Source of the DNA: Tubulanus polymorphus
Lineage: Eukaryota; Animalia; Nemertea
Length of the DNA stretch: 64,000 bases
Assembly (NCBI RefSeq): GCF_964204645.1
Contig: NC_134026.1
Coordinates: 26,260,150 to 26,324,149, forward strand
Direction of reading: 5' to 3'
Shown here: positions 28,832 to 57,338 of the stretch, in pieces
Numbering within the stretch: position 1 is the stretch's first letter
Layout of the letters: each line of letters opens with the position of its first letter
The notes under the pieces: generated by a model
The model's database searches: none
Told to the model about the DNA's origin: nothing
Seen by the model: the letters and a program-made list of their open reading frames with translations, nothing else
Made by a program: the position numbers and the translations under genes

Positions 28832-31800
28832 TCATGAAACACGTCTTTCTTCTGGTACACACATGAATAGTTTCTGCATCCATAAGGTAGACTCATCTGA
28901 AAAAAAGATAAACCATGCATCAAGTATATATCAAAAGGAGAATAGTCTTAAGAGTGGCTACGGCAGTTGCTACAGTACCAGTGACAAAACTTACTCATAA
29001 AGTTAAGGAAGACCTTTGGTTTCTTCTCCCATTTCACAAAGATTATGTAAACAGGAATTCCTGTGGCAATTATAAGGCAACCGAAGCCAGTTTCAACCGG
29101 ACTGGCATATAGCGGCAGTACAACCAGGAAAACAGTACAACTCACATACAAAATCGGCCAAAACAGAGCCACCTGAAATGAAATAAGAAAACATGAGACT
29201 TATATATATATATCATGAAATAGCATAAACATGTGCATATCATGAAATAAAATTTGTTATTAATCATTAAGTTAATAGAAACAACTATGTATGTACCTTT
29301 ATTGGTCTGTTCATTTCTGGACGTTTCCAACGGAAATATAACAATGCTACGACAGATAAACCAATGGAGAGCCAGTTGACAAATCCAACATAGTTAATCA
29401 AAGCATACATATCAGTAGAACATAGGTAGATCAGAGATGTTAAACCCATGAACAATACAGCTGGAAGGGGAGTCATTCGCTGTACCTGAACCATACTCAA
29501 TATCTGAGGCATATGACCTTCACGCGCACCGACAAAAAATAATCTGAAAAGAGAAAAGAAGGCATCGAACTAAAAAGAATTTCAAAATTCACTTTCAGAA
29601 CTTAAGGACCTGAAATAAATGTAAATATAATTTAGATAATTCAGTATCTAACCTAAATTCAACTGACATTGATTAACCAGAACAATAGCCAAAGTAAACA
29701 TACCCTAATTTTAGCAGTTAAGATATTTTACTTTTCTGACGTTCATGAAAACGATCAAAATCAACTAGCACAACAACAATAACCGATTTATCAATCATTC
29801 TAAATCAATGCTAGAATTGACACCTACCGAGAAGTGGTGAAGAGAACACCATTAACACCCCCGAATGTTGACAGCGATACAAAGATCGGCATAACCCACC
29901 ACATAATTCCATACAATCTCTTCGAGAAAGTCTGCAAAATAATCAAGAAACTCTAGTAGTCATCAGTCTTCAATGAAGGTTTGCGTGGGGTAATTTAATC
30001 GAAACTTTCATTGATAATATTGACATCAATCAGGACACCTCAGATCATTAGTAATCCTCATTGAATTTTGATACGTACCACGGCTACAGCAGACGATTCT
30101 AATATTTCGTCAGGCATAACAGTAGTGAAATATGCCACATTTGCAAACACATACACTACCATTACCAAAATACAGGAGATCCATATAGCTTTCGGCAAAT
30201 TCCTAGAACGAGAATTGGATTTCAATGTGAAATCAATCAATTATGGGCATATCAACATGATGAAACCATATAAAAATGAATGCTTACTTTACTGGATCTT
30301 TCAGTTCCTCAATTACATAGTTCAAGTAATTCCTGTAAGAAAAATTTCATTTATTCATCCATCTTTCTTTACATAAGTACTTCTAGTTTGAGACATGTAG
30401 TGACTTTTAACACATTTAAGCCTAACATAGCTAATTTTCCTTATACCTACCAACCATTATATGCAAATAAACCAGAATAAAATGCCAATGATATTTCGCC
30501 CACGTCTGTTTTAGAATTTTCGAACGGATTTTTGAAGGCTTCATACTTTCCTAAGAAAAAAATTAATTTCAAACAAAATTAATTCTACAGTGGACATTAT
30601 AAATCAATACCATGACTGGATAAACATGATCACTACAAGTATTACATTGGGAGAGGCCAGGAAGGTTAGAAACTGATGACATAATGCTATTGATACGAAC
30701 AAGAGATATTTTATCCTTCAATCAGTCATTTGTAGATCGATCGCCGAGAAATCAATACTAAGTTACTTAGTGGAGATTTACGTTAGAAGAAAATCAATCA
30801 ATTTTCATGATAGAAAGTGCCACTAAGTATTACAAAAGTAATCAGTTTATGCTTGCAGCTACGTTAGATGGGGCCGAAGAGAGATAAAAGAAATAACAGG
30901 CAGAAACCCTGATAGGAATTTCATCTATCGGTATATCACACCACTAAATATGACATAGCTGTTCTTTATACCTTAGTTTCTTTTTCAGCTATAAATTGAA
31001 CTCAAACAAACCTCTTCCTATTTGAACAAATCCAGTGATGATGATCAGTATTAGTGCAAGAACTTTCGCATACGTGAATATATCTTGAACTCTGGTTGCC
31101 CATTTCACATCAGCACAGTTAACAAATGTTAAAATCGCTGAAAATACACATAAAGACCAGCATTATTATATCTGTACAAATTAGGGGCTTTACTGTTCTC
31201 ATCTGAACAATCATCGGAGTATGATGACGTAGAATAGAAAACATTAAGGTCATCAAACATTGGAATTGTCATAACTATAACTAGAATAGCTACCATATAG
31301 TGATTCAGCTGTAGAAAAGTATAAACTATAACAAAAATCATTTCTATCTACTGGAAAAACTATTGTAAGCTTATATTACATTATGACATAAATTTGCTTA
31401 CTGGTTTATTTATATCCAGCTGTCATCGAAATGAAATTAAAATTTCAACAAAAAAATTATATCAATTTCTGTAATAGCAGCTGTAACCCAATTCATGTTT
31501 AAACTACCAGTAGGCCTGGCCTATAAGTAACCTGCTGAAGCATGAATTGGGGACTCTGGTGTGAAATGACATTGCCATTCATAATCTTGATAAATTGTGT
31601 CTTTTGTCTTAAATGGTGCGCCAGGTTCAACTAACAACCCAATTTTATTGAGTGTGGACCCATAGGAAAACTAGTTTATTATTACCAGCATGGTAGTACT
31701 TCAAATGTGACCATTCAATGAACCATATGATAATAGAGCTATTTGAGTAAAGCCTCCACATTACTCGGCGACTGACTACTACTATCTACTATGAAATAAC

Positions 31801-32728
31801 ATACAGGTCTGAAATGAGAGACCATGCAGATGCTAAAACTAATAAAAATTTATATTCTAAATCCAGCATTAAATAAACTCAATCAAAATCTAACAAAAAT
31901 TTCACTAATTCTGTGTACGATGAAAATCCTAACGCATATGAACTCAAAATACTAATCTGAGTTTATCTAGAAATACATAATTTGCCTAATTTTTGGATTG
32001 GATGACCGAAATTTGAAGTCAGAGTTAATTAGAAAAAGAACTATGGTACTTTTGATCGAGTATGTCTGATTTTTTTAGAGCTTTCCAATATCGATAGCTG
32101 GTTTTCCGGTAACCAATTGTAACTAAGTCATGTTTACACTATACCTTTCGTGTACATGATACTTACCAATACAAACAGTTGCCAATAGCCTGACAGCTGT
32201 ATCAGGCTGATCACAGTCTGGAAACAGTGGCTCTATAACATAGTACGCAAATGTAAGGGCGACAATTGCCTGAGAACATGGGCGGACTATCATACACTCG
32301 ACCCATAGACGTAAAAACGCTAATAATGGTCCAAATGCTTCAAATATATACGCGTAGTCAGCTCCAGATCTCGTTATTAGAAGTCCTAATTCGGCATAGC
32401 AATACGCGCCTACCATTGAAAACAGTCCGCATAATATCCAAACTATCAGCGATGTACCGACACTTCCACAACCATCCAGCACTCCTTTAGGGCTGACAAA
32501 AATTCCGGAACCGATGATACTGCCAACGATTACTGTAATTCCGTTGATGAGGGTAACTTTTGGTTTGAGATTAACAGCTTCATTTCCAGCGGCTGGTGGC
32601 GGTACATCACCATTCACGGCTGTTTGTTCATTGTCCACTAACGGAGATAAACCAGTTCCTGAACTTGAAGGTCCATTTGGAGGAGTAACTGGCTCGTACT
32701 CCTTTTGAGGCGAGTTGCGCTTCGACAT
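28832..32728 (-). CDS. SLC7A5: SLC7 L-type amino-acid transporter light chain (LAT1/LAT2-like), isoform A: first exon 32167-32728 plus 8 shared exons within 28832-31137
   Basis: TM1 [20 protein letters not shown], heavy-chain cysteine [37 protein letters not shown] and GAREGHMP; stop TGA at 28832-28834. The exact vertebrate ortholog (SLC7A5 vs 7A8 and others) cannot be assigned here. Confidence 0.93.
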
Positions 32729-32815
32729 TTTCAGACAAAATCTAGTGCCGAATGTATGACCGTGCTACTATATATGTCTGTCAGTTATATCAGGTGTGTC
32801 AAGATAACAGCTGTT

Positions 32816-33150
32816 CTTTTATAATAAGAACTTGACGATCAGGCGTCTAGAACAATTGATGACGCAATGAGTCCAAAAGCAGTCTCCTCAGTTACTATCG
32901 TAGACAGTGTTACTCACGTTTAAAAACCCGGAAGTAGAAATTCCACGTTACGATTTTCTTCAAATTTACCGGTTTATTAGTAGATTTTCACGTGATCTTC
33001 TAGTTCAGATCATTTCCAAGATATCCACATGTCGCCGATAAATTAATTGTCAACTTGAAGGCGGTGTAAAGCTACAAATGTCCGTTGACACGTACAAAAC
33101 TTCACGAAATTCTATCACGACCACGCTTCAGCAGCGCCAATAACCACGTG
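32816..33150 (-). promoter_or_regulatory. Candidate promoter of SLC7 exon A
   Basis: TATAAAAG (minus strand, 32816-32823). C/EBP-ATF composite TGACGCAAT at 32860-32868. E-boxes TCACGTGA at ~32988 and CACGTGAC at ~33145. Confidence 0.5.
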
Positions 33151-34115
33151 ACTTTAAATGCGGCCCATTTATCGACGGGGCATAGAGGTCATGCAAAATG
33201 GAACTATGTCTTTCAAGAACAAAATCACACGGAACAATTATTCCGAGATTACACTTAAATAATAACGATTACTTAAATTTTGTTATATATGATATTTCGC
33301 TAAAATATATCCCGTTTTCAATAATCTTGAAATGAGCTACGGCTAACGAGGGAAATAATAAACTATTCCAAATACGTCATTGATCTCGGGCCAATCAACA
33401 CCTAGAATGAAGTTATGAATGAACACCCACGTGCACTTGTTTACTACACATTGAATACTATACTACACACGACCAAAATTCAAAACAATAGCGCGTATAG
33501 CATATATCGAATATACGACATAATGTCCATCGCATATCATACACTCTGAAAACTATCACATGTTTTCTATGGTGGCCGACCCGTGCCATATTGAAAAAGT
33601 ATAATTGATCAGTCCCCACCAATCATCTTTTTTACATTTTTGCTCGTTTCGACCAAAATCCCGCAAATGTTCGTTTCAATGTCGGTCTTTATTTCATTTA
33701 ACGTGGTATTTTTCGTCTTAAGGTCGTAAATCCAACTTGTCGTTTTAAACGCGCCGGAATGAACAAAATGAGACACAAACATTTTCCTTTAGATTACCAC
33801 GCCGTAGTTTGAAAGTAGGATAAGTGTCTAAAACGACAATTTGGATTTAACGCCACAAAATGAAAAGCGTTAAAAAAGAAATTTGTGCCGGCAGATTGCC
33901 GTGCCATATCTCTTATCAATGCGCCCCGAATAAGCCATCATAATTTTTGCATATCTGCTAAAATCTCGGGCTAGCATTTCATTTCGGAAACGCGATAGTA
34001 CCGTGGAAAATGTCTTACAAACGTCTCTACGTGTCGTCAACTTCGAGACCGTCGATTCTGGATTTGTTTTATAGATCGCCAAAAATATGCAAATACATTT
34101 TATCATGACTTTGTA

Positions 34116-34962
34116 TAGTCAGTAACCTGTCTGTGGTTTAGTTTCACAATCGGATATTTTCACAAACCACAGTCAGGAATGGGAAGGTCATTTTTGTATG
34201 AAATCTTCGTCAGCCAATTTGACTGACGAGTAATTTGCCTGGCATTTCATTGTCTCTTAAGATATCCGTCTATTTTTTGTTGTAATCGACGCACAACAGA
34301 TTCGTTGTTTGTCTGATACCTATAACACCTCACCTGACGATCTTAATCCATGTGCAAATCGGCCGTAAAGTGAGAGTAAATTTCCGTCGGGTCAACAGCT
34401 GCCATTTTGAAAATTACTGGAGGTGCTGGCACCTGTGGACTGAGGCCAGGACAACAGCACAAACTAACGAAGCGAAACGACGAAATTGAAAAAAATTAAG
34501 AAATCAACACTTATTCACATTTTTCTTTTACCAGAATTTATTATTTTGTAATTTAATATGGAAAACCTGAAGATTTGAAATATAAGTTGGAAAACCATCA
34601 AAAATAAAAATTGTCGTTTCGTCTTGAAAGTTTTATATAAATCCTTGTAGGTCCCCTTGTCTTATCATGCCACATGTGCAATACAGAGAAATGGCGGCCA
34701 ATGGCGAAATTGGTGGAGAAATTAATTAATTTCTCAAAATAATGTTGATTAACCACTCGAAACATACATAAAATTGGATTATTTCGAAAGGTACCTGTGT
34801 TAGATTGTGAATTAAGCCATTAATTGTGGACTGAAGTGAATAGAAAGTATATTTTTGAAGTGTTACTTTTTTCAACCGTGTTTTGGTCCTTGTCATCCCT
34901 AACGTTGGTATAAGCCCATCCGATTATAAAAAGCTTACCACCAACGATTAGGTAACTAACTA
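34116..34962. mobile_element. 847-bp non-autonomous DNA transposon (long copy) with perfect 9-bp TSD GACTTTGTA
   Basis: Same termini as 25577-25691. TSD copies at 34107-34115 and 34963-34971. No transposase ORF. Confidence 0.88.
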
Positions 34963-35888
34963 GACTTTGTATAGGCCTACTCGAAACGGTATAAACTATA
35001 TTTCATTAAAAATCAGACCCTCATCTAAGAGGACAAGTGAAGCAGTTTCTTGAGACATTATCCTCGGCCCATACATCGTTTGGTTAGAGATCACCTGATA
35101 CATCATCTGACCATTAATATTATGATTTACTCTACGAATTGGTTGTCCTATTCCCCTCGCACTATATTTATTCATGTTTGCCAAGTTATCATTCGGAAGT
35201 TTGCGTGCATCTAGCGTAGAAGGCCATCCATTGGAAAAAGGGAAACTCTCTATTGATTATTCCTTAGTTTTTGTATATTTCAGACCTTACCATCATAGCG
35301 AACGAACCCCCTTTTTTCGGCTAGGTTTCTTCATTTTTTACTACATAGTTTTGTAAACAGCTTAATACTACGTATTTGTAAAGATATTATACATATTAAA
35401 TAAAACAAACACGCAATTGTTGTAATTTGTTTCTCCTCACGGTTCTCGTGTTTTTTTCCCGGAAGGTAATCACTCAAGGTGGCAGGAAAACGCTTTAAAT
35501 CGCTCCTTATTTCCAAACCCCCCGTGGGGACTTCGAACCTCAGGTCCTTTTCAAAGGCGCCTTACTAGATTCGCCAAATCGCCGATGATCGAACCCCCTA
35601 AAAATATCTATGTCCCGAATATCCTATGACCATGATGCTAGGTTTTCTATATAACGTACACAGCTCTTGACGTTACATACTATTAACTTAAAATGTGGTT
35701 TCAGATATTCAACAAATGACATTGAACGCGCATGACCTCTTCACTCTTTCACCCCGAGAAAACAATTTCATCACATCTTAATCGTGTCGCGCGTGAAAGA
35801 AATGAATGCCGCGTAGTAGAAAAATATAGGAAATATGGACAATGAGGTGACATTTAACAAACCTTCGCCTCACTCGCTAGATACTTAC

Positions 35889-36420
35889 TTATGCAGCCGG
35901 CAGCAAGAAGGACCACCGATGTTCGTGGCTGATCACATTCTGGGAAAATTGGTTCAAGCACGTAATAAGCAAATGCCAACGCTATGATAGCCTGAGTACC
36001 TGGCCTGACAATCATACACTCCACCCAGAGCCTTAAAAATCCCAGAAATGGTCCAAATGCGTCAGAGATGTACGAATAGTCAGCGCCTGACTTTTTTATC
36101 ATAGTTCCCAATTCGGCATAACAGTAGGCACCACATAGCGAAAATAATCCACACAGTAACCAAATAATTAGTGATATACCAACACTTCCAGAATGTTCAA
36201 GAACTCCAGTCGGGCTGATGAATATACCCGAGCCTATTATGCTACCAACAATTACAGTAACTCCATTTAAAAGTGAAACTTTTGGCTTGAGATTTACTCC
36301 TTTTTGACCATCTCCAGTATCTGATTGTTTGACTTCTTGAAGCAGGTTTTCCGGCCCTTCTGGTGATTTAACCACGGAACCATCTCCGGCTCCATTCGCC
36401 GATTTATCATCCACATTCAT
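35889..36420 (-). CDS. SLC7 alternative first coding exon B (N-terminus to TM4)
   Basis: Intact ORF from the ATG at 36420, paralogous to exon A. Ends TGC ATA A|GTAAGT (phase 1), in frame with the exon-2 acceptor at 31137. Confidence 0.85.
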
Positions 36421-37006
36421 AGTTTTAATTCTGTTTTATTTATATGCGAAATTGCTGAAAAACTCTTTTAATAAAAATAGAGTTTTCCACGAGCGGATAG
36501 CATATGTCGGTCGTCTCGCAACGTCCGTGGAATGAAACACCTTGGAGATACGACAACGCGGATGCTTTATATTGCCATCACTACGTCACCCACACACGCG
36601 ATGATATATTTCTTTTTTCCATGTTTGAACTCAGAACAATCGTCCGTACATTTGAAAAGTGGCTCATATCTAAATGGCTGTGAAAAGTAATCATGTTATC
36701 TCCTCAAAATCAGAATAATTGATAGCAAAGTTCGCATATAAAAGAATAGATAAGCAGAATGGGCTAAATGAATAACCAACAAATTTACCAAACATTGTGC
36801 GTGTCAAAGCCTTTTGCAACCATCTGATATATAACTTTTCCTGTACTGGCATTTTTCCTGGTTTTTAGGCCAGTGAGCCCTTTGGTCAGAAAATATGAAT
36901 TAGGTAGGCCTATATCAGATGGCCGCCGTGCTTTTCGTTTGGATAGAAGTACTGATAGATCTTTTGAAAAACACCAAAAGTTGTAAAACAAATTCATCAT
37001 TCTTAC

Positions 37007-37502
37007 TTATGCAGCACATCGCTAGAAAGACAACGCCCAGTTCAGGTTCTTTGCAATCAGGAAATAGTGGTTCCAGAACGTAGTTTGCAAATACTAATGC
37101 CATAATAGCTTGTGTAGCTGGTCTTATGATTGTCACCTCTACCCATAAGCGTAAAAAGCCAATAAATGGTCCAAATGCTTCGGACATGTAGGCATAATCG
37201 GCGCCTGATTTTGTGATGATAGTTCCCAATTCGGCATAACAATAAGCTCCACACAAGGAGAACAGTCCACACGCCACCCAAACGACCAGTGACGAACCGA
37301 CACTTCCAGCATGCTTCAACACACCAGTTGGAGCCACGAAAGGTCCAGATCCTATGATGCTACCAACTATAAAAGTTACTCCACTGAACATAGAAATTTT
37401 AGGCTTTAAATACACCTTTTTATCATCGTCCGCAAAACCATCTTCTCTCAGTGAAGAAAGAATATTTTCCTGAATATCATCGTTAACAGCAGAGTGAGCC
37501 AT
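37007..37502 (-). CDS. SLC7 alternative first coding exon C (N-terminus to TM4)
   Basis: Intact ORF from the ATG at 37502. Ends TGC ATA A|GTAAGA (phase 1). It is only ~590 bp from exon B, leaving no room for its own downstream exons. Confidence 0.82.
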
Positions 37503-38082
37503 TTAAAATCCATACAAGTCCTTCGTTCGAATAACTAAGGCCCAGGACACACCCGATATCCGCAATAAAGGGCTTATCTTCAACTCAGGGTATCTTCCAA
37601 TCAGCGACTTTAGGTCTGTTCAAACAACAAATCGGATTAAATACGTATGAATGCGTGAAAGATTTCAATTGAAAGAAATATAAATCATATGTAAAACGAT
37701 GTTTTTATTTGTGATACGAAACTATCAGTTTCTAATAATGTATGTATGTATATATTCGTAGTAAAACATATAAGAATTATAGTTGTATGAATTAACAATC
37801 GAAGGAAAATTTGATGAAAACGCTAACACGAAATTTAAAATCACCAGTAAGATCCGGTATTATATATCTTTTCTTCGTAAGACGCCATAACTGTGGAAAT
37901 GATAAATTTAGCTTTATTTGGCAAGTTTTACAATAGAAAGCCCACACCATGATTTATCATGGTATACACATGGTTTAACGTTTTCCAATAACCATCGTAT
38001 AAAGTGAATATTTTCCTGTAAAATCGGTCAGTGTCAGTGGGTCCCGGAATTTCATATTTGGTGCATCAGTCGGTTATGTGGT

Positions 38083-40445
38083 TTATGTTGCAATCAAAGA
38101 ACTTGGATTTTGTTCACAAACTGCCAGTGATCTACTCGTATTGCCGTAGGTATGTCCGAATTTAAAGACTTGTTCTGAAAAAACCCAGAAAAATGTGTAA
38201 TTGTTACAAAATTCGATTTCAAAACGCACGAACATCATGTTTTATTGATACAAAATGAATCTGAACAAATAAAATAACAACAAAGCAACAAAATTAAATA
38301 ACTTATAAAAACCAACAATTGATATCGAGCTTGTAATAGTTTCCTAAAATATAATCCCCTGACGACTGCATTCAATCCCGGATTTGACCGTACGGTGAAT
38401 GGTGCAAAAAGCTTTGCGTGATGAACCGAGCTACGTGCTGACAGGACGTCAGATAATCACTGAAAAACATTGTCGGCGCCAATTTGTTGATTGTGGTATA
38501 CAGAACTAATCACATTTGCTTATAAATCCGTGACACGTTTTGCGATGTTATTTGGTTATTGTTTTTGATAAATCAGTGTATATCCGTCAGCTGAATATAT
38601 CATATTATATTTGCCGCTTGTAGACTGTCCAATAGAAGATCTTTAAATAATTCGAAAAGCTACTAAATATAGATTTAAATAGCAAAAAGCATTAAACACT
38701 GATGTGATACGTATCATTTCTGACCGCCGTGAAGCTGGCTCCCGGTTCCCGGTTCCCGGTTGGGCTCCCGATTGAAAATGATTTTGAATCGGGAGCCCAA
38801 CCGGGAACCGGGAACCGGGAGCCAGCTTCACGGGGGTTCATTTCTGTAGTAGCCATAGACAACGAAAATAGTGTTTGGCTAATGTGATGTTGTACCTTTA
38901 ATTGCTTGCCGTTCTTTCTAAAACAAGAAATACATTTACGATGATTTTTTAGTAAGTCTACCTTTGTCCTTTTGATTTTTTCTTTGAACCACCGCATATC
39001 ACAGCAGACAGCTTTACATTTTTACTAGGTTTCATGAAATACACGAATCACCGATATTTCTCGATAAGAAGTTTGTTACTGATTTTGGATGACTTACGAG
39101 GCAGATATCCTGTATAATTAGGTACCATTCCCTCTGGAGCATAGATACTTCGTGTACCTGGTGAATCAAGGCGGAAATTGACGTTGTACTTTTGAGGTGT
39201 CGGTCTGAAACACGCAAACAAAAATATATTGCCATTTCTACAACGAGTTGATATTTCAGCAAATGGTTGCACATAAATGTTACCTTTGATCCAGTGAAAT
39301 CGGGGCATTCCTGTTTGCTTGAGTGCGTTCCATTTCGTTGTAGAAAACGCTAAAACCATTTTTGCTAACAGTATGGTATCGAGCACCCAAACCAATTTCA
39401 GTCGGTTTCACCTTCGGGACATATCCTACGTAACCAGGTATCGGGGCCTCATCACCAGTGCGTTTCTCTTCTACAGTTACCCAAAATATGATCAATTATT
39501 TTGATATTTGAATTCCAAGATATTTAAAATTCAATAATCTATTGATCATGGTTTTGAAACTATTTACCAATTAAAACGTTTTGACGGTTTGGATTTCTTT
39601 CTCTGAATTGAAGGCAGGATTCTCTCACTTCGGAATCTGGTGCTATGGACTTTAAAACTGGTTGTCGGTTGACCGTGTTTCGTAAACTGGCCTCCTCGTG
39701 CGCGTTCTTCTCATTAGCGTGCATGAAATCATCGATACTTAAATCACAGATCACTCGGTACCGATTACCAAATTTATAGGGTGAAGTTGGAACATAGCCT
39801 GTAAAAAATAAACCGTGTAAAAACGAATTCAATTCTATTGTCTTATCTTGACAAATGCCCACGTGATTATCGATATATTCTTATCGAAAAATCTTCTTAA
39901 GTAAATTTTGCATTATTTTTGGGTCATTAGAATATCATATCAACCTGTATAACCGGGTACCATTTCTTTGAAGTATTTATTGTCTCCTGTAGCTTCAGGA
40001 ATTAGAAGTTCACGTGGTTTACCAGTAGTTACTTCCAACTCACCACCTTCAACCGTCCAGTTTTGCTGCAAATATAATTAGATCACTTTATTTAAAACAT
40101 ATGATACACAATGAAATGATGGAATTATATTTGTCAGTAATTTCAATATAAAGGGATTTTGACTAATCGACTAAAGAGTATCGATCTGATGACGATGGTA
40201 ATGTTTTTTATTGATTTGCAGCTGAAACATTGCATGGATGCTGATGAATATGATTAATCATAGTGGCAGTTCCAAATCCGATTTGATATTTTCGAAAACA
40301 TTTATACCTGATTGCATTGACTATCCTCCCATTTTCTCATAGATTCCTCCCATTTACGACGAAGTCTGCCATAACAGTATTCATCTACATATTCCGTATC
40401 GTATTCATCCTCAAATAAAATCTCAGGATCCTTTGTTTTCGACAT
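38083..40445 (-). CDS. SPMIP5: SPMIP5/C10orf82-like ciliary microtubule inner protein (PYG-repeat type); multi-exon
   Basis: EAPIPGYVGYVPKVKPTEIGLGARYHTVSKNGF resembles the recalled C10orf82 [25 protein letters not shown]. Repeats MVPGYTGYVP and MVPNYTGYLP. Last exon 38083-38174 (QVFKFGHTYGNTSRSLAVC) is in phase. Confidence 0.8.
38723..38837. mobile_element. 115-bp near-perfect palindromic MITE with perfect 9-bp TSD TCATTTCTG, in a SPMIP5 intron
   Basis: Arm CCGTGAAGCTGGCTCCCGGTTCCCGGTTCCCGGTTGGGCTCCCGATT and its exact reverse complement. TSD copies at 38714-38722 and 38838-38846. Confidence 0.92.
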
Positions 40446-43400: not shown

Positions 43401-43602
43401 GTTTCATCAGGGAAGTGTCTCATTACACTTCCCGACAGTTCAACAACCAAGACATCATTATTTCCATTCATACGAACTCTGACAAACCAAAATCCATAAT
43501 ATACTTTCTTTAATTGTTGAACACTTTATGACAATTAGCTAAACAATACTTACTTACTATACGAAATAGGTATAAGTTTTGAGAACAGTAAATGAAAGGA
43601 GA

Positions 43603-46600
43603 ATGGGAAATGCTGAGAGTCAAGTTGCTAGTGGCATCAAAGCTCAAGTAGACAGCGGCCAACGAAAACTATATCGACTCATCTCACTTAAAGGAGATGG
43701 TGAACTTGTAACATTAATGAAAGTGGCAAATAGAACTAAAGATTACAGCATTCTAGATGAGAAAATACGTACCGAAGTCCGCCCATTTCTATACAACGGA
43801 GGAGCGGGAAAATGGATCCCGAAAGGGGATATCGTCAAAATCCGACATGCTGATCGTGAAGATGAATTCCAAAATGTAGCTGGTACATACAAGTCACTGA
43901 AACCTGTGGATCATGTGCAGTTTGGTTGTATTGAAAATGGAAACGCACAATTTGGCAGTCAGAGTAATGGCATCGTACCATGTTACAAAGATCAAGATGG
44001 TAAGCGATTTGGGAGAGCTGATAACTTATTTTGCTGATGATTTTAACTCTCAATGTATAATTTTCATATAATTTTTAGCTTTTTCGCTTTTTCAGATTGT
44101 CCATATCGCTTCTGTTGTTGGGATCTTGATCAACGAGGAACTGTCGGTGAGACAATCCTTCATTTGTGCTTCCTGAATGCATCGTCATTACACGCTGATC
44201 TCGCTAAACGGCTACTAATGGCTTATCCAAATATGATTCGCGATATCTACGTCGGGGATGTCTATTACGGTATTTTTCTACGCATACCCCGGTAATAGTG
44301 TGCAATCTAAAGATACAATAAGCTTATGATTTTAAGGTTTATCATATAATTTCAGGTGAATCGGTACTTCATATGGCAATAGTAAATGAGGACCCGGCGA
44401 TTGTAAAATTCCTTCTAGATCGAGGGGCAGAGGTAAACGACCGTACGTGTGGCAGTTTCTTCACAGCCGATGACCAAAAAGACCATCGTAAAGATACGTA
44501 CGATCAAGAAAACCCCGATATACCCATACAAACTAACTATGATGGGTACGTCACGAGTCCCACTTCTATTTCAAGCAAGTAAACATTTCAAAAACAGTTT
44601 TTCTTTCTTCATTTTTATAGGTATTCATACTGGGGCGAATATCCACTGGGTTTTGCTGCCTGTTTAGGACAGGAGGAATGTGTCAGATTATTGTTAGCTA
44701 AAGGAGCTGATCCAAACAAACAGGATGGTAATGGAAATACAGTACTTCATATGCTTGTCATACTGGATAAAAAGGTAGCTGATTATATGAATAAGTAATC
44801 CACTTTTGCGTGGAATTGCAATTTACTATATAGTCTATGTCCATTAAGAGCTATCGCTATCATTGTCTGTTTTCTTTCCGAACAGAATAGCAAGAAAGTT
44901 GGAAAGGTTGGAATCTAATCTATATGTAATATTCTTGTCATCCATAACCATTTCAGGAATCCTCCTATGTTTGAGATATTTTTCGGCTGTTTCCATGTTA
45001 TATGGACCATACAATACTAATGTTGTGAATTGTCAGTTTAATATCAGTTCTGTTATTTTGTAATTGATGAAACAATTGAGATTTTTAAATTGCACTCTTT
45101 CGGATCGATCCATTTTTTAATTCCTCATTGGAATTTTTACAAAACAGCTTTACCATATAATGCTTGAAAAACCTGTTTACCCAACAATCGTTCTCTGTGG
45201 TTTGGTATTGTTCGTTTTCAATGTAGTTTTACTTGTAATATCAATGTTATAAGCGAATGTTGGAATAAATCTATTTTCAGTGGATAGATCAGTCAATCCT
45301 CAGAAAGAAATTCAAACCTCGAAAGGAATGTATGATGATATGAAATTTCACAAATTTCACTTTGATAACATAATCTATTCACGCCCCAAACTTTAACACG
45401 TGACCAGAATCTCACCCACTAAAACTAAATGTCTTCTTATTGTCTATGTGATCTAGTGTTTTACATAACACATCTTACCACTGAATTCTCTCGACGCTAC
45501 ATCCAGTGTAACTAATACACTTCAAAAATGAAAATTCACTACTTGTATCACTATATTGCTGGATGTATTCTATGTCAACGAAAGTGCGAATGAAATAATA
45601 CTCTGTAATATTTTCCGCATTTGCACGCACCATCATAATCTGCATGGATTTGATCCTTTCTTTGTCACAGTACACAAGTCCAAAGGTAATTTTTCTATCC
45701 ATTTTAAAATCATGTTGTGTTAGCTTACTGTATTCATATGGAAACAAACCTTAAGTTAATCTGGTTTTCGAAATCGCCATTGATGATTATATAGATTTAT
45801 GAAAACGTGTGTTTCTCGTGCGTGTTAGAAAAAGTTAAACACAGAAAATTATCTTTTTTCTCATCATAGGAAATGTTTGATGTTCTGCACAGTCAAGGAG
45901 CTAGATTACATATAAGAAATCGGAAGGGCCTCACTCCACTTACACTTGCCGCTCATTTGGCCAGGAAAGAGGTTTTAACCATTTCGTAAATTAACGAAAC
46001 ACCCAACTTCACCGGTTTCGACGAAATTGCATTAGTAAAATCCATATTTCTATGTAGATGTATGAACACATTTTGGAGTTATCGCGAGAAATTCAATGGG
46101 TTTTTGGCAATGTCATCTGTGCCGCGTACCCTTTGTCAGATATAGACAGTATATCACAGGATGGCAGTATCAGCGAATACTCTGCCATTTACAAAATTGT
46201 CCACGGTGTAAGTAGAAGAAATCCCTTTTAAGACTACCGGTATATGATTTATGTACGGAATATCACTACATCTAGCATTAGCTTACCATCAATTAAAATC
46301 ATTGGTTTCAATTAAAATATCTGCACATTTTTCAGGACGCATTAAGTCATGTAGAAATGTTAGATGGAGTTGTAGCGCAGATTCTACGACTTAAATGGAA
46401 CACTTTCATCAAATCCCAGTGAGTTCATCTGCATTTTAAGTTTCTGACTTACTGAGATGCCTCTTAAATGCAGACTAAGAGAATTTGTATTTTTCAGTTT
46501 TTATTGGCAGTTTGGGCTGTTCACGTTGTATTTTCTGATATTTATGTTGGCTTTTGTGATGAGACCCGGTCGTGATTTAAACCCAATCATTCGTCAGATG

Positions 46601-48788
46601 AACCTCACTACTTCCAATAACTCTCATTATTCCGTCAACAAAACAATAAATGATCCATGTTACCTGATGAAAAATACCCGTACAGAAGATTCTGTAAGTT
46701 ATGATACCTAATGAGTTCACGAAATATTTCCTATTTTGTAATGATATTTGTAAAGACATTTGTAAATGTTGAACTAAATTAGTTCTATGTTGAAGTCTTT
46801 GAAATGGAACAATGATAAGTACAAACTGATAGTCAGTTGATTAGAAGCTTAGATAGTTGTGTAATGTAAATTAGTTCGATATTAATTTCTATTCTAGGCA
46901 CGTTTTGTCTTAGAGTTGATGACTATTATCGGTGCAACCTGTTACCTTTACTTCGCTGCTTATGAAATACATCAACAGAAATTGAAAATATTCTTCCAAA
47001 CGTTGGTAATTTCAATCAAAAAATGCCACTCCATTCTTTAGTAACTTTTGAAATTGGAAAATTAAGTAACTTTGATTTTTGAAAAATCGTTTTGTAGAGC
47101 GCTGCGCCGATGAAGGCCCTATTTCTGTTTTCTTGTATTCTGGTTTTATTGATGGTACCAGGACGAGCAGCTTGTATGCCGATGTATGAAGATGTTATGG
47201 GCATCATGGCTATTCTCTGTACCGCTCCTTATTTCCTATTCTTCTGTCGGTATGTACCTACTTATTGACAAAAAACCACACAAAATCCATTATATTCCAT
47301 TCGTATTGAATTCCAAGAAACACTTTTTCGTCGAGAACAATATAGGCGACCTCTGTACCTACGAGGATGTATGAAAATGTGTGTACAGAAATTGTGTCGA
47401 ATTGAGTAAAATATCAAATCAGTGACAATGCTATAAATTTCTATAAAAAAGATCCAATTATACGCAGATTCCCAATATCGTTTGGTCAAATCAGAGGACA
47501 TCTGGCCACTGCCCCATAGATAAAGATGTTCGTTCCACTGTCACAATTCCGATCAAAACCAGATAATGTGTAATTAGTAAAGTGTAATTTACAGAGGTTT
47601 TAAGATGGTTGGCCCATTTGTCGTGATGATTTATAAAATGGTTCGAGGAGATCTGTTACGTTTTGTCATTATATACGCCGTATTTATGATAGGATTTTCT
47701 CAAGGTATTTTTGATGTATGAATATAGGCTATATTTAGTTAAAATGCTTGTTTTTTAGAATTAGGCCTGCACAACGGGTAGTCATTGGATCTATTGTAAA
47801 TATCAAATGTATACATTTAATGTTATTACAGCAATGTTTGTAGTATTTCGGAGAGTAGATGCTGATCAAACGATTTTTTCAAACGCCATAGAAGCTATGG
47901 TCGGTATGTTCATCATGTCACTTGGAGAATTTGGAGACATTTATGAACAATTAGAAGAATCAAACCATGCTAGACTTGGAAAGGTGCATAGATAATGAAA
48001 TCAACCATCAGAATAATTGATGATGTAGTTTCGTTCATTCAATCATTTGTAGTCAGGAAATTTTACAAAGATTCCGTATATATTTTGCTTAACCTAATTA
48101 AATCCGTTTTTACAATTGAAGGTAATATTCGTTGCACATATGGTACTTGTAACTCTACTCTTAGTGAATATGTTGATAGCTATGATGGGTAATACATATC
48201 AAATGGTAACTGAGACACAAGGAGAATGGTTGCGTCAGGTAACAACGATTCCCTCGCCCATTAACGACATCACCAAATTCGTTATTCAAATATTACCAAT
48301 TCCTATAATCTCTTTAGTGGGCTAGCATCTTACTGGTTGTAGAACAGGGAGTATCGGCAAATAAAAGGAAATTAATGCAAGAAATTTATTCACAACCGCT
48401 GTCAGACGGACAACAAAGAGCGGTCGTAATCAGATGGCATCAAACGGTAAGCTCCGTTTCAACGGATTCGTTATTTTGAAAGAAAAATAGGTATCGTATT
48501 ACACGTAATCATGAGCTTCACTGAACGAATTCCGATCACAATGAGGACTTTCTTTTCTTCCATTATTTTCTGTCATATTTTTGTGTCCTTCTCAGGCCTT
48601 CTTTCGAAACGAGGCATTTAGCCTTATCGTCATCGTAACAATGTATACAGATTTCGATATTTCAGAGAGAGGTCGAAGAGAAAGACTTGGAAACAGCAAA
48701 ACAGGAGAAACAGAAACTACTGCGGTCTTTAATGATCAAAAATACTCAAAGTATCATCACGGATACAGATAGCATAGAAAATTGCTAA
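43603..48788 (+). CDS. nan: TRPV cation channel, nanchung/OCR-like (canonical copy); multi-exon
   Basis: [15 protein letters not shown] resembles the Nan N-terminus. Ankyrin repeats ([24 protein letters not shown]), S4-S5 linker [16 protein letters not shown], pore [10 protein letters not shown]6 [17 protein letters not shown] box EWLRQWA. Confidence 0.93.
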
Positions 48789-49384
48789 TATTATCATCAT
48801 CTTCTGATGTACTCATGAAGAACATGCAAAAATAAAAAGCATTGTTCTTTTCAATAATGAAATTTGTATTTTATTGTTTCTCATCATTGTACACAAATAA
48901 AGAATTTATTAAAAACCTGTTAACACATTATGCATTACTGCAATATAAATAGTTGTCATACGTTGCAAATACCTTTAAAAAAACTTAAGAAATACATAAG
49001 TAATAAGAAAACATGGACTTACCCGCATAAAACAAAACATTTTGTGGAGAAGATTGTCAATTTAGTGAATAAAATATAATCTATACATTTATATAACAAG
49101 TATAGCTAAAATGCTGATTAAAACGTAACAATATGTAAAGCCATGATCTTATTTAAAACTGATTTTTTCATGATAAAACAAATACATACGAATTGCATCT
49201 TAATATAACATGTATGAAAATAAGATTTAACAAGAATTAAGCCAATATACTGTTAAGCAAACCAAATCGAACATTGACTAAATACTGAAAATATTTTTAG
49301 GCATGCTGAGGTAAGACTATTTTTTAATGACAGAACTAATCAAGCAACATGCAGGAGATATCACTTAATGCTATGAAAGAATCA

Positions 49385-52300
49385 TCATCTTTCACTAGGT
49401 GTTCGACTCACTGAACTACTATGACGAGGTGTATTCAATAATAAATTCTCCTCATTTTTCTGATGTAAACGATGCTGTTCACGAAGTAATTTGTCCTCAA
49501 TTTGTTCTTCTTCCTAAAAAGAAAAAGAAAATACCGCAATCAAATACATCATATATTGAAAACAAATAAATTGAGAAATATGCTGTCAGAGAAAGAGATT
49601 GAGGAGAGACAGGTACTCACTGTTCTCTGCCAACGAATAACAAATTGTCTTCCATCTTTTCCATCTTCACCGAGTGGTTGAGAATATTGCTTCTGGCAAC
49701 TCAGGCGTTTCTCAGCAGATACAGAAAATTCAACAACCAAAACAATCTGTGAGTACTACAAAAAGCAACAATACGCCAGATAAATGCAAAACATTCGCCC
49801 CAGTAAATAAACTGCTGTAGGATTATCAAAGATAAACTAACCTGTCTAATCCATTCTCTGTCCTGATCATTGATGATATTAAAAGTTTGACCCATCATCG
49901 CAATCAGCATATTGACCAGTAGAATTGTACTGATAATCAAATTGAATATGAACAATGCCTAATAATATAAATAACAGAACATCATCAAATAATATCAGTG
50001 ATTCAAAGGAGGGCCAAAGTCAACTTGAAATAGTGCACATGAAGAAGGACCGTCATCTTGGATGGATATTTGTTATACTTACTTTCGCTATCAGATGATG
50101 TGGTGATAATTCGAACTGCTCATAAAGCTCCTGAAATTCTGACAGAGTGATAATAATAGTTCCCATGATAGCTTTCAACGGATGATTAAACTGGGTTTCT
50201 TCGGTCACCAATCGAAAACAGATGTAAAGCGCTAAAAAAGACATACATATACATATCATACATCTATATATGGGTACTTCATTGTACTAACATCATCTAT
50301 CAAAATACATGGTTGTTACTGACCTTGTGAAAATCCAATGAGGAAAACAAAATATATCAATGCAAATCGTATAAGATCACCTTTGATCATCTTATAAAAC
50401 ATAACTACTGAAGGTCCACTGTACTTGAAACCCCTGAAAATAGGACACAATTCTATTTCAGATATATATCTTGATAGGTTTCATTGAATTGTAGAGGTAC
50501 ACATATAAATGCATATACATACCGTAGAAAGAATAGAAAATGGGGTGTACTGAGAACTATTGAAATGGTACAGATTGTGTCCTCATAAGGGAAATAACAG
50601 GCAAAGCGTCCAGGGATGGCAATGACCACTAAAACACAGCCTAACAGAAAAAGTGCTTTTGTTGGAGCAAATGCCTGTAATAGATTATACAAATAATTAA
50701 AATTTGGTACATTGCGCATACATCGAAATGCATGACTCCTTGAAAATAAGATCTTACTATGGTATTGATGTATAATCTAAAGGAATTTTGATATATAACC
50801 AAAAACTGGTACAATATCTGTGAAATAGCTATCACCACGACCAAACATTCAATCACAATGCGGGCCTGAAATAGAAAATGTTACAAGTTTGAAAACAGAT
50901 TGCAGAAATCACATTACAAAGCCTGGGTTTATGAAGTACTCACATATGCAGTGGTATCTTTAGGATAGTATAGGTAACATTTATCTTTGATGGTGACATT
51001 CTTCCAACCTGTTGTTCCATTAACCAGTGATTGAACAACAAAATTGTCATCACCAGGACGAATATACATTGCTGCAGTGAACAGAACAATGTACAAAAGA
51101 AACCAAATAAACTGCAACAACAGCCTGAAAATAGCATCTTTTATATCTATATTACTGAAGTTGACAAGATACATTTCATTGAAAATTACTGTTTTTGATC
51201 TTAAAATGGGCATTGACCCTGTTATTTATCTAAAAATCACTGTTTTAATGAACCTTTTTGCGACGAAAGTTTTCCATTTTTCTGCCAGCAGATCGGTAAC
51301 TAAGCCATCAAGCATATTAAGATGACACTGTTCATTCTATAAAAATCAAAACCAAATTGGGATTTAGTAGAAGATTATCAATAGTTCAAATCAATTCATG
51401 TTATTCATATACATTGTAATTAATACCATCAACTAACCCCATGGACAATCTTATACAGAGCAGAATTTTCATCTATTTCTCCCTTCGGTCCAATCGTATC
51501 AAAGGTAGATAATGGATAACCAGCACACACTACATCTCCATAGCTCCAACAAATTGATCGCTTGATCTTAAGTATATGTTCATACATCTAAGGGTTTAAA
51601 GATTTATTCATAGAGGATTAATATTGCTGTTTGATTAACAAACAAAAAGTCACGCACATGTATGCACAATCATATATACCTCCAGATTTCCAATATGAGC
51701 AGAAAGAGTGAAAGGAGACAATCCCTGGCGATTTCTTATATTTATATCTGCACCGAGTTCATGTAGTAGATCAAACATATGCTATAATATATGAACAACA
51801 TTAAAAATCGTTTGTAAAGTCAGAAATATATCATGTACCGGTAAAGAATTTAAGGAGCAGTCTCTTACAGTATTATTCTGCACAACCAGCATATGAAGAG
51901 CAGTGTTACCATTAGCATCCTGCCTGTTAGGATCCGCTCCATGAGCTAACAATAATCGAACACATTCTTCCTGATTCAAACACGCTGCAAAACTCAGCGG
52001 ATATTCACCCCAATATACCTTCCTGTAAGAGCAAGAAATGTTCGAATCCTTATAAAACACAAGCTAAGTAAGATTAAAAGTAAAAGATTTTTTTCAACAA
52101 TTTACCCGATATGTGAAGTTTTCTTAGGCAACGCAATCCATTCATAATCGCTGTAATCATTTCTTTCATCTTTCTGGTCATCAGCGCAGAAGAAATTACC
52201 ACATGCACGATCATAAAGTGATGGGCCGCAGTCTAACAGCATTTTCAACATAGCAGGACTCTCAGACACAATAGCCATATGGAGTGTTCCTTCACCTGTA

Positions 52301-53159
52301 AATTACCAAATTATGAAAATCATGTAAGTAACTTGGAGATGACTTGACAATTTGCTTTTGAATGTTTGAAAGATAATGATTTACCATAATATTCATCACC
52401 GATGTAGATGTCTTTCGCGAGATTTGGGTAAATTTGGATGAGTCTTTTAGCAAGATTTATGTGAAGTGATGATCCATTCAATAAACATAAATGCAAGATT
52501 GTTTCACCAACAGTCCCGCGCTTGTCTATATCCCAACAACAGAATCTGTATTTATCGGCTAGGAAAGAAATGATAATAATCGTTTATGTTAACGAATGGA
52601 AAAATTTAACAAATTTGAATATTTCTTCTAATATAAGCCCATATCTATATAAAACATTACCATCTTCAGGATATTTATATTTCATAGACGTCATCAGCTC
52701 TTCTTTATCATGAGCGCTTAAAACTCGATGCAACATTCTTGGATTATTGACAGATGCTTGTATTTTACGTATTGACTGTCCAGCCCTTGATCTCGATGAT
52801 CCAGAAACAAGTAGACCACGCGGTCGGGAATAAAACTCATTCAATGACTTCTCGTCGATTTCATTTCCTGATTCGAATTTTGCCAGACGGCTGATCAATT
52901 TACTTCTTTCAGAGCGACGCCTCGTCACAAGCTCGGTCTTTTCAATAAGTCGCCCTTTACCTCCGTAATATAGATAGGGTTGAACCTTCTGCTTAATTGC
53001 ATGATCAAGTTTAGTAAGATCTTTTGAAGCTATAGCCGTCTTTGCCAAATCAATCAACTCCCCACCACCTTCCAAATTAACCAATTTATACAAGGGTCTG
53101 GATTCAGCAACAGTTTGCTGTTTTACATTCGTTTTGATATGAGAATTCGTGGCTCCCAT
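49385..53159 (-). CDS. TRPV nanchung-like paralog 2 (divergent); multi-exon
   Basis: MGATNS...[25 protein letters not shown] and [14 protein letters not shown]. Intron positions correspond to copy 1. No frame breaks in the exons traced. Confidence 0.9.
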
Positions 53160-53565
53160 TATGGAATTTTCAATTTTTCTATGAAATTAAGTTGTTAGTC
53201 ATGATTTGAATACTTAAGATTATATCAAATTGTCAATATACACTATGATAGTGTTTGACACTTGGTAAATACAGCTGTTGTCGCGTATCCAATGACGCTT
53301 TGCCGACAGAGCCCTCTAGGTGTACATGATGTATGGTGGCTGGATTAGGCTATTCAATATAAACAGATGGCAGCAGTATACAATCATTTATGAATATAAA
53401 CTCTGTAGCGGTTCATTGCTTTTTATTTAAACTATCAAATAAACAAAAATACATATCAATATACATATCAGTGCGATATACAACGCCAAAAGTAGATCAT
53501 AAGACTACCTGTACTTAGCATATCGTCAAATCTTTTTTGAATTTAAAAGAATAATTCTTATTCGA

Positions 53566-56500
53566 TTATTCTAGTCCCGGATTCAAATCTCCACCTGGTT
53601 GTTTACATATTTTCTCTTTTTTGTTCATCTACCTACAACAAACAATTTCACTGTGAAACTCTTGCTTATCTACCTACTACTATCATACACTGGACGGGTA
53701 CATACAGTTTTTCTCCATCTGACGAAGAAAAGACGACCATCCTTTGGATTTTCACTGGCTGGTATCGAATAAATCTGTTGCTCTTTCAGTCGACTCTTTC
53801 TACTTACTGTCAACTCCATCACAAGCACAACTTGAGACCACTGAATTATCATAAAACGGAAAAAATAATTTTACTTATGTGGTTTAACAAAAAAAAAAAA
53901 CTTGATCACAGAGTATTCCGGAAAACAGGCCCAGTTTTCAAAGTACCTATCAGATGCATCATTTTCCTGAATTTTACTAGATGTCCCCCTCAATCAAAAA
54001 GATAGACCCTCCAAACCTTGCTTCATTCAAACTTGACAGTTTGTACTTGTAATGACAAATAAAGAGTCACCTGTCTGAGCCATTCTCGATCAAGAACTTG
54101 GACACTGATGTATGTTCTAGCCATCATAGCGATTAACAAGTTGGTCAGTAAAATTGCAGTAAAAACCATATTAAACAAGAACACAGCCTTAAATGATAAC
54201 CAAAAAAGTTAAAGTTGATATTCAAGACAGTTTTTATCAGAAATCTAATGTTTCCAGCTACGCTAACCTTGGCTGCCAATTGATGCTGGGACTTTTCAAA
54301 CTCTTCATAAAAGTCTTGAAATTCATGCAATGATATGGCAAACATTGACACCAAAGCATTCAGGGGATGCCAGAAACTATTCGGAGGAGGAACCGACCGG
54401 AAACAGATATACAAAGCTGAAATAAGATGTAGAGAATCTATAATTTTGAAATATGTCAATGTTGAAATATTTCATGCTATGGACAATCAAGGTTTGTTAG
54501 ACTTACATTGAGAAAATCCAATCAAAAAGATGAGATAAATGATCATAAATCGTAGGATGTCACGACTTACAATCTTGTAGATCATGCTTACAAACGGACC
54601 AAAAACCTTGAAACCCCTTAATATGAAAGAAAGATGACTGCTAAATTAGATTTCGAAATGTGACTCTTTTAAGAAAACAATGAACGTCCTGTCAGTGCAT
54701 TACCGGCAAAAGAATAAGAAATGTGGAACGGTAAATAACACTGCTAGTGTAATCATCACATCTTCATAAGCAGCAGAACATGTAAACCGACCAGGTACAG
54801 ATAATATCACTAAAATACAACCGATCAGAAACATTGTCCTTGATGGAGCAAATATCTGAAAGATGAAAAATTGAAAAATAGTCATTTTTCAAACATTTCT
54901 TTCTACACAAAGAAGGAGCTGAAAAAATCTTACCAAGGTTCTGAAGAATAGGCGAGTAGACTGCATACACATTAGGATTAAAACATAGAAAACAGCACTA
55001 ACCGCAAAAAGTAGAGTTATGCATTCAAGAACAATTCTTGCCTGGAAAACATTAATTAAAGATATTTCACCACACTACTAGTTATTGAAACACTGTTATT
55101 ATTTTCATACCTACATAGTCAGTAGAATCAACTGCTTGTAAGAGATAACACTCATTCACTTTGGTGGTCGTTAAGTTAGTACCGTTTTGTACGAACGTTA
55201 CATTTGTTCGGTGTGGATCATTACTAGGACGCAGGCCAACAGCAACAAGGAAAACAATTGTGTACAATATAAACAAAATTAGTTGCACAACGAATCTGTA
55301 AAAACAACATCAGTGATTTGTAAAGATTTTCAAAGTTATATGTATTGCACACAGTTATAATAGATTAATGTTCAGACCTGAATTTGATGTAAGCGTTCCA
55401 TTTCTGTTCGAGAAGATCAATTACCATTCCATCATACATTTTCAAGTGATTTGGATCAGACTGGAAAATCAAACATTATGATGAAGCTCAAAGTTCACTA
55501 CACCCAAAAAAAATGATAATGTACAACTTACCCCATGCACAATTTTGTATAAAACTGAAGTACTATCAATCTCACCATTTATATCACAAGTATCTATACT
55601 TTTTAGTGGATATGTGGCACATGTCACTGAACCATAGTTCCATTGAATCCGTCTTGTGGTATCAATTATATGTCGATAAATCTGTAGAAATATTAGAAAG
55701 TCAAGCAACTGAAATCTCATTGAATCCTCAAACTGTAAATAATCAAACTTACCTCTAATTTACCCATATGAGCAGCTAATGATAGAGGGGTCATTCCTAA
55801 TCGATTACGAATTGTCAAACTGCCTCCCAGATCATGAAGTAAGTCAAACATATCCTAAAAATTATCAAAGATTTCTGGCTATAACAATTTAAATAGGTCC
55901 TATTGTTATAGTCATCAATCTAGATACAGGTAGATATTGTTATTAGATTAATTCAAATTTTACTTAAACCAATGATGATGTAAAGCATTTTTAAAGAGAG
56001 CTATGAGAACCTTTCTGTTATATATGACACTCATGTGAAGTGCTGTGTTGCCATTCATATCTTGTCTATCGAGTTCAGCTCCATGGGCAACTAAAAGACG
56101 CACACATTCTTGTAATCCGAGTGAGGCAGCAAAACTCAACGGATATTCACCAAAATAAACAAATCTACATGATAAACATCAACACAATATAATCATTAAT
56201 ACAGAAGAAATGTGCTTAGAGAGAAATAATAATTCAAATATGACCTTTTGAATTTGCGTTTATTAAATGTGATTAAACATGTAGTTATTACCCGCGATAG
56301 TTAGTTTGCAATGGAACTTGAATGGCTTCGCTATCAATGTAGTCATTGCGGTATGCTTTCTGGTCATCAGCACAGAAGAAATTTCCACATGCTCTGTCGT
56401 GGAGACCAGCTTTACATTCCAACAGCTTCTTCAATAGGGCAGGGTTCTCATTAACAATAGCCATATGCAGTGGGTTTTCACCTATGGATAGAAGAAAAAT

Positions 56501-57338
56501 TATATTGAAATACACTGAACAAAAATTATAATTCTCTATTGATAGAAAGATATTACCATAGTACTCATCTTTGATGTAAATGTCCATGGCAAGGTTAGGG
56601 AAATGTTCTACAAGTCTCTTAGCCAGATTTACATGTGTAGTAGATCCATTCAAACAGCAAAGATGAAAAATGGTTTCACCAACAGTTCCACGTTTATCAA
56701 TATCCCAACAACAAAAGCGATACAAGTCATCTAAGAATATACGGGTGTATTGAAATGTGAAATGACAAGATTGATACATACAAGTATCACTATTTGAAAA
56801 AGAACATATACTTACTATCTTCCTGTTGTTTTTGGCGTACTTGTGTTTGACTATCACCTCTATAAAACTTTTTTAACATACTGGAATCTTTAGCAAATAT
56901 ACTCTCTTGTCTGCGCATTGCTAGATTACTGCCTGGTGTTAGTGGTAGCTTCATCGTCTGTCCGTAAGATTTCTGTGCTTGAGAACTGACAATAAGACCT
57001 CGCGGTCGTGAGAAATATTCCAGAATTTCTTCATCTTCTTCTTCACGAGGATCGTGTGTAGCTAATTTCTCATAGATTCTTGTTCGTTCATCACGTCGTC
57101 CTTCGACTAATTTAGATTTAAGAATCATCTTACCCTTTCCACCTCGGTACAAATAAGGTTTTACTTTAGTCAAGATAGCGTCGTCAAGTTTTGAATAGTC
57201 ATTAGTTGACAATGCATCCTGCATTAACGTAACAAGTTCTCCAGTGCCCCCTAAATTCACCAAACTATATAATGGTCTAGATTCATTTTGGATCTGTTTC
57301 TTAACTCCAGTATTGATTGAAGTATTTGTATTCCCCAT
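53566..57338 (-). CDS. TRPV nanchung-like paralog 3 (divergent); multi-exon, last-exon acceptor ambiguous (stop at ~53603 or 53566)
   Basis: [67 protein letters not shown] and WLRQWS. Confidence 0.9.

Follow-up and report, generated by a model that had tools for sequence, protein, structure and literature searches.

This study concerns a gene on the minus strand of a 64,000-nucleotide stretch of the genome of the ribbon worm Tubulanus polymorphus (assembly GCF_964204645.1, contig NC_134026.1, positions 26,260,150 to 26,324,149), referred to below as the window, in whose coordinates all features are given. The gene, at 28832–37502, is predicted from its sequence to encode an SLC7 light chain of the LAT type. 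It has three tandem first coding exons, A, B, and C, of which at least A and B are joined to one constant set of exons. We consider it probable that this arrangement, likely with a separate promoter for each first exon, yields transporters predicted to differ in the neutral amino acids that they carry.

The three variable exons are C (37007–37502, 496 nucleotides or 165 codons plus 1 nucleotide, donor GTAAGA), B (coding part 35889–36420, 532 nucleotides or 177 codons plus 1 nucleotide, donor GTAAGT), and A (coding part 32167–32728, 562 nucleotides or 187 codons plus 1 nucleotide, donor GTAAGT). Each is free of stop codons from its ATG onward, has a length that leaves a remainder of 1 when divided by 3, and ends in a phase-1 donor at one and the same aligned residue. 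They are separated by 586 bp (C to B) and 3160 bp (B to A), and 1029 bp lie between A and exon 2. The constant set comprises exon 2 (31012–31137), with the common acceptor at 31137, exon 3 (30451–30550), exon 4 (30288–30332), exon 5 (30079–30202), exon 6 (29828–29931), exon 7 (29297–29543), exon 8 (28995–29172), and the coding part of exon 9 up to the stop (28832–28896), from which an RNA contig runs on as 3' untranslated region beyond 27500. Joined to these eight exons, A, B, and C give stop-free proteins of 516, 506, and 494 amino acids, respectively. The initial annotation, made from the DNA letters alone, had proposed a variable-first-exon design; its coordinates for the three exons were correct, and the start codons, reading frames, and phase-1 GTAAG donors were all confirmed, as was a single exon 2 that every first exon joins in frame. 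The constant exons are single-copy within the window, the range over which copies were counted. In agreement with the proposal that no transporter exons follow C or B, a tblastn search found no constant-exon remnant in any of the three gaps or in the 1.5 kb upstream of C (best E value 1.7).

We considered six sequencing runs (X1–X6), none of which is recorded as RNA. Runs X2 and X5, from two studies, were treated as RNA because seven of the seven constant GT-AG introns are skipped in both. A contig of run X2, 783 nucleotides long, covers 36641–35889 and carries a 30-nucleotide loose end identical to the first 30 nucleotides of exon 2, which demonstrates that B is spliced to the common acceptor; the B-to-exon 2 junction (35889 to 31137) that we looked for is thus present in RNA. 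Another contig of this run covers A from 33139 to 32167 and stops precisely at the donor. The start of the constant contig was placed at exon 2 by arithmetic, exons 2–6 amounting to 499 nucleotides and contig position 500 corresponding to 29543. Run X5 covers A as well, with three letter differences; run X6 yielded no aligned contig. At the protein level, A plus the constant exons is identical to the T. polymorphus RefSeq entry XP_074640592.1 (isoform X1), and B plus the constant exons is identical to XP_074640593.1 (isoform X2). The two-isoform design is therefore already present in RefSeq, in the form of automatic models.

The contigs on A and B start at 33139 and 36641, respectively, without any join to upstream sequence; such contigs cannot reveal where transcription starts, and a promoter motif scan yielded nothing distinctive. 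The leader of the A transcript is at least 410 nucleotides long in the RNA contig (32729–33139), and its upstream ATGs, which include those at 33030 and 33013, possibly exert translational control.

Over their last 136 codons, the three exons share 75% (A-B), 66% (A-C), and 71% (B-C) protein identity and 64–70% DNA identity. Exon-to-exon matches at E values of 1e-60 to 1e-69 show that this likeness is not due to chance. By the Nei-Gojobori method, nonsynonymous divergence (dN) is 0.17–0.28 and synonymous divergence (dS) 1.5–3.7; the dN/dS ratios are 0.078 (A-B), 0.076 (A-C), and 0.148 (B-C), values that are rough, as dS is near saturation. Pairwise changes fall on 76–86 of 136 third codon positions versus 13–21 second positions. 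The duplications of the first exon are old, and A, B, and C were all under purifying selection through most of their history. The initial annotation had regarded neutral ratios, combined with an absence of B or C junction reads, as a sign of pseudo-exons; the ratios obtained here (0.076–0.148) indicate purifying selection instead. Together with the B splice seen in RNA and the two RefSeq isoforms, this purifying selection supports the variable-first-exon design for A and B.

The status of C is less clear, and the proposal that one locus makes three transporters stands well supported for A and B and unproven in its number, with C lacking RNA and database support. It is close to an even call, leaning slightly to the negative, that C alone is dead or dying and that the locus makes two transporters, as in other species. 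Several features of C point that way and weigh against its use as a third isoform. The residue after its GSG motif is Pro, whereas 287 of 287 motif matches have Ile at this position. C departs from the consensus at 11 of 68 near-invariant columns, compared with 6 for B and none for A (the references were chosen by their TM3 motif; TM, transmembrane helix), and it has the longest branch of the three in our trees. Only 416 bp separate the AATAAA of the upstream gene from the ATG of C, leaving little space for a promoter. A C isoform is missing from the RefSeq cluster, whose two members are isoforms X1 and X2. No RNA piece covers C, or its junction to exon 2, in the runs treated as RNA; run X2 has no cover at 36913–37821, which, coming from one sample, does not imply silence. 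Searching with exon C for longer proteins returned five matches, none of them a C isoform, in a weak search that missed most known relatives.

Two sets of contigs near C were set aside: short unspliced contigs on C in runs X3 and X4, libraries of unknown kind, were not counted as expression, and a run X2 contig at 36661–36849 (depth 4.5) was not used, as it could stem from C pre-mRNA, from a B transcript that starts farther upstream, or from DNA.

Against a dead C, its start, frame, donor, and heavy-chain Cys are all intact, and B-C dN/dS is 0.15 at a dS of about 1.5. Simulated neutral copies remained intact in 4% of draws once 0.05 substitutions per site had accumulated and in 0.1% at 0.1, so any loss of C must be recent. 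We see about even chances that C serves as a third isoform confined to certain tissues or stages or that it was silenced very recently. A dead C would be compatible with what is said here of A and B.

The assignment to the LAT-type light chains draws on matches to PF13520 (AA_permease_2; E values 4e-61 and 3e-65) and on the best PDB match, human LAT2 (E value 3.5e-170). The GSG motif is found in A, B, and C, and the TM1 break is visible in an AlphaFold model of B. Exon 3 carries the TM6 gate motif, in which Phe258 of the A isoform aligns to LAT2 Phe243. A Cys at the LAT2-154 position, between TM3 and TM4, is conserved in all three Tubulanus exons and in every partner exon of the other species (see below); we take it to be the site of the disulfide with the heavy chain. 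Asn occupies both TM6 positions at which dibasic transporters have acidic residues, which suggests neutral amino acids as substrates, even though the protein is labelled Y+L. In the AlphaFold model of B (mean predicted local distance difference test score, pLDDT, 80), TM4 spans residues 166–186 and the boundary between variable and constant parts falls after residue 177. Of the initial claim that each first exon spans TM1–TM4, TM1–TM3 are thus borne out, and TM4 is included only by half. The N-terminal tails do differ as had been proposed, the three exons failing to align outside a core of 136 amino acids.

We propose that the choice among first exons would be made by the transcription start site, since every first exon is closed by a donor and the RNA contigs show nothing spliced onto A or B from farther upstream. 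The donor of the chosen exon would then skip any downstream first exons to reach the first acceptor, that of exon 2. The variable exon would supply TM1, TM3, and the N-terminal tail, and the constant part would supply TM6, TM8, and TM10; with TM1 and TM3 coming from the variable exon, an exon swap would alter half of the substrate pocket.

In this half lies residue 152 of isoform A, which aligns to LAT2 Asn134. The equivalent residues are LAT1 Ser144 and LeuT Val104, and this position is reported to tune substrate selectivity across APC transporters; in mouse LAT2, the N133S substitution raised T2 transport (part of PMC5809530). The N134Q substitution in LAT2 lowered activity to about 15–20% (part of PMC7653941), and LAT1 Ser144 contacts BCH and JPH203, with S144N abolishing Leu uptake (part of PMC11828871). 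Tubulanus has Ser at this position in A and Thr in B and C, along with neighboring TM3 changes, which bears out in sequence the earlier expectation that pocket residues differ among the first exons. A would be the ancestral form, with Ser at the LAT1-S144/LAT2-N134 position, and Thr together with the neighboring TM3 changes in B (and in C, if used) would reshape the pocket, shifting selectivity or affinity.

We compared 324 fetched proteins to look at this design in other species, working on protein records. It was found in 12 of them, namely Lineus, seven gastropods, three mites, and one copepod. Ten species have isoform pairs that share a common protein downstream of the boundary and differ in homologous TM1–TM4 blocks (73–83% identical where computed): the nemertean Lineus longissimus; the gastropods Patella vulgata, Haliotis asinina, Gigantopelta aegis, Littorina saxatilis, Babylonia areolata, Physella acuta, and Biomphalaria glabrata; and the mites Dermatophagoides farinae and D. 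pteronyssinus. Models with two fused blocks occur in Blomia tropicalis, D. pteronyssinus, and a crustacean record, Tk, which groups among crustaceans and insects in the trees. We presume Tk to be the copepod Tigriopus. Each fused model (P0101, P0102, P0225, and P0249) contains two first exons in one over-long protein, and these are probably annotation errors that disclose the exon order. In the fused models of the mites and the copepod, the Ser exon precedes the other one; in Tubulanus, it lies nearest exon 2. In the constant-region tree, all genes with this design fall in one group (Shimodaira-Hasegawa-like approximate likelihood ratio test, SH-aLRT, 92) that roughly tracks species relationships. 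No second first exon appeared in the fetched isoforms of oysters, Dreissena, decapods, Daphnia, or insects, which represent part of larger clusters and annotation only. Nematode proteins with two cores (P0116, P0131, and P0267) were excluded, their cores being 370–530 residues apart, as in fused whole genes.

The orthologue varies elsewhere as well. In Panulirus ornatus (P0215–P0219 and P0177), there are two alternative homologous segments in the TM8 region and three alternative last exons, and bivalve orthologues of oyster (P0201/P0203) and Dreissena (P0193/P0038) have alternative C termini. The gene seems susceptible to exon duplication at several sites.

Exons were ranked within each species by their identity to 22 reference orthologues, omitting the TM1 and TM3 motif columns against circularity. 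At position 134, the slower exon carries Ser in all 13 of the 13 species, and every faster exon carries Thr (in 10 species) or Asn (in the three mites). All 22 reference orthologues, in which no second first exon was seen, have Ser. Among the 136 columns, position 134 is the only one that changes in 13 species; the next changes in 10. Neighboring position 135 changes in 10 species and TM1 position 52 in 8.

We then asked how often the extra exon arose. In unconstrained trees, the mite and copepod extra exons fall among arthropod sequences, and Tubulanus B joins C (98–100 bootstrap). Forcing all extra exons into one clade gave p values in the approximately unbiased (AU) test of 0.031 with 59 rows and 0.085 with 60 rows (the former set with three rows added and two long rows dropped), so that a single origin of all extra exons is disfavored and not firmly rejected. 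The constrained groups were named only after the first tree had been inspected. Single clades gave AU p values of 0.38 (gastropods), 0.73 (nemerteans), 0.37 (spiralians), 0.33 (arthropods), and 0.53 (Tubulanus A, B, and C); one origin within gastropods, within nemerteans, or within spiralians is therefore not rejected. Two to four origins of the extra exon are favored, and gene conversion between adjacent exons could conceal one old origin. A tentative scenario, which we consider less likely than not, is that the same LAT orthologue independently duplicated its first exon in three or four lineages (nemerteans, gastropods, mites, and copepods), altering the TM3 specificity residue each time and creating a promoter-operated substrate switch, so that a single locus would play the part that in vertebrates is divided between the LAT1 and LAT2 genes. 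In the ribbon worm, a second duplication would have given rise to a third variant of the pocket, in which the Pro at the TM1 hinge is without precedent.

Apart from those concerning C, several points weigh against our interpretation. The A-to-exon 2 junction (32167 to 31137) is known from contig ends and RefSeq isoform X1, not displayed directly, and the contigs show neither transcription starts nor strand, so that the promoters are only inferred. The substrate difference between isoforms is a prediction from residues, and Ser to Thr is a mild change. Thr also occurs at position 134 in nematode and some other LAT proteins with no known partner exon. The ranking margin is small in Patella (0.693 versus 0.689) and Physella (0.692 versus 0.677), and the 13 species amount to at most four independent lineages, perhaps fewer.

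In an alternative view, the exons would serve regulation only, with separate promoters and N-terminal tails providing tissue-specific expression or trafficking and the pocket changes being tolerated drift. The unalignable tails would fit such a role, as would the conservative nature of many TM3 changes and the greater overall divergence of the extra exons, which is expected under relaxed constraint. We nevertheless judge it unlikely, because the sole column changed in all 13 species is a published specificity site with Ser in every reference orthologue, and because the mites share with human LAT2 an Asn at this site. It is very improbable that the assembly merged distinct full-length genes or that B and C are pseudo-exons of a partial duplication, an objection raised in the initial annotation and now largely refuted: although a second constant region was searched for within the window only and the DNA-run comparison covers 35600–38600, B is spliced in RNA to this very exon 2, the constant contig has no variant letters in its run, one contig of DNA run X1 (possibly the source of the assembly) extends across C and B with even depth, and isoform pairs whose downstream protein is identical occur in ten other species.

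The remainder of the window contains features of other kinds. Between B and A lies a multi-copy repeat (34116–34962, not assigned to a strand), which occurs in many copies and internally deleted forms in the sequencing runs and is probably a non-autonomous transposon. The upstream gene, on the minus strand from 37911 to about 42900, has repeated PGYTG-like motifs, and two of its exons gave no Pfam match; its last exon starts at 38174, is spliced from an exon ending near 39099, and ends about 400 bp from exon C. We take this gene to be FAM166/CIMIP2-like. Three whole tandem genes for ankyrin-repeat channels, presumably of the TRPV type judging from their motifs, occupy 43576–57356 (one on the plus strand from about 43600 and two on the minus strand from about 53160 and 57340). 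The trio was rejected as a second variable/constant locus, as nearly every exon is present in three copies, which makes these genes whole-gene duplicates.

If the interpretation favored here is correct, the isoforms are natural LeuT-fold chimeras, identical from mid-TM4 onward, and they allow the share of TM1–TM4 in selectivity to be measured with no need to engineer hybrids. As for the recurrent change at LAT1-S144/LAT2-N134, either convergence occurred repeatedly at the molecular level or the two-exon system is very old. The design also explains the misannotated fused models in mites and the copepod, and it means that counting LAT genes underestimates transporter diversity in gastropods.

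The UGT1A locus has tandem variable first exons and shared 3' exons, and in the clustered protocadherins each cell makes a stochastic, CTCF-dependent promoter choice. Like these two systems and GCNT2, the gene described here has tandem homologous 5' coding exons, one per transcript, and common 3' exons (part of PMC8373072), and its variable part bears specificity-related residues. It is unlike them in that its variable exon covers 3.5 of the 12 helices of a LeuT-fold transporter and in that the array is small (two or three exons). A further invertebrate parallel is the chelicerate sDscam gene, with tandem 5' cassettes, alternative promoters, and constant exons; sDscam, however, is an adhesion receptor with large arrays of multi-exon cassettes (part of PMC4835542). 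The architecture itself is thus of a known kind. N-terminal swaps from duplicated first exons account for 39 of 236 human events, including GCNT2, SLC25A24, SLC41A3, and SLC44A2, and SLC7A2, SLC12A1, SLC25A3, and SLC39A14 have duplicated internal alternative exons (part of PMC8373072). These human genes also swap homologous transporter segments, and SLC7A2 belongs to the same family; its event, in contrast, concerns an internal exon of about 46 amino acids in a cationic transporter, and the human N-terminal SLC events inspected span 42–91 amino acids (part of PMC8373072). The 11 SLC rows on sheet 1 of the supplement include no LAT-type SLC7 gene (part of PMC8373072). Titles and abstract openings in open-access PMC and bioRxiv, a scope that leaves out subscription journals and bioRxiv supplements, held no description of duplicated first exons in an SLC7/LAT gene. 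What appears to be new is that the design spans species beyond Tubulanus, with a recurrent change at a specificity residue. The closest functional comparison is with human LAT1 and LAT2, of which LAT2 is the closest solved structure and which differ from each other at the same TM3 position (Ser144 versus Asn134). Vertebrates divide the two pockets between the separate genes LAT1 (SLC7A5) and LAT2 (SLC7A8), whereas the pocket variants described here would come from one locus.

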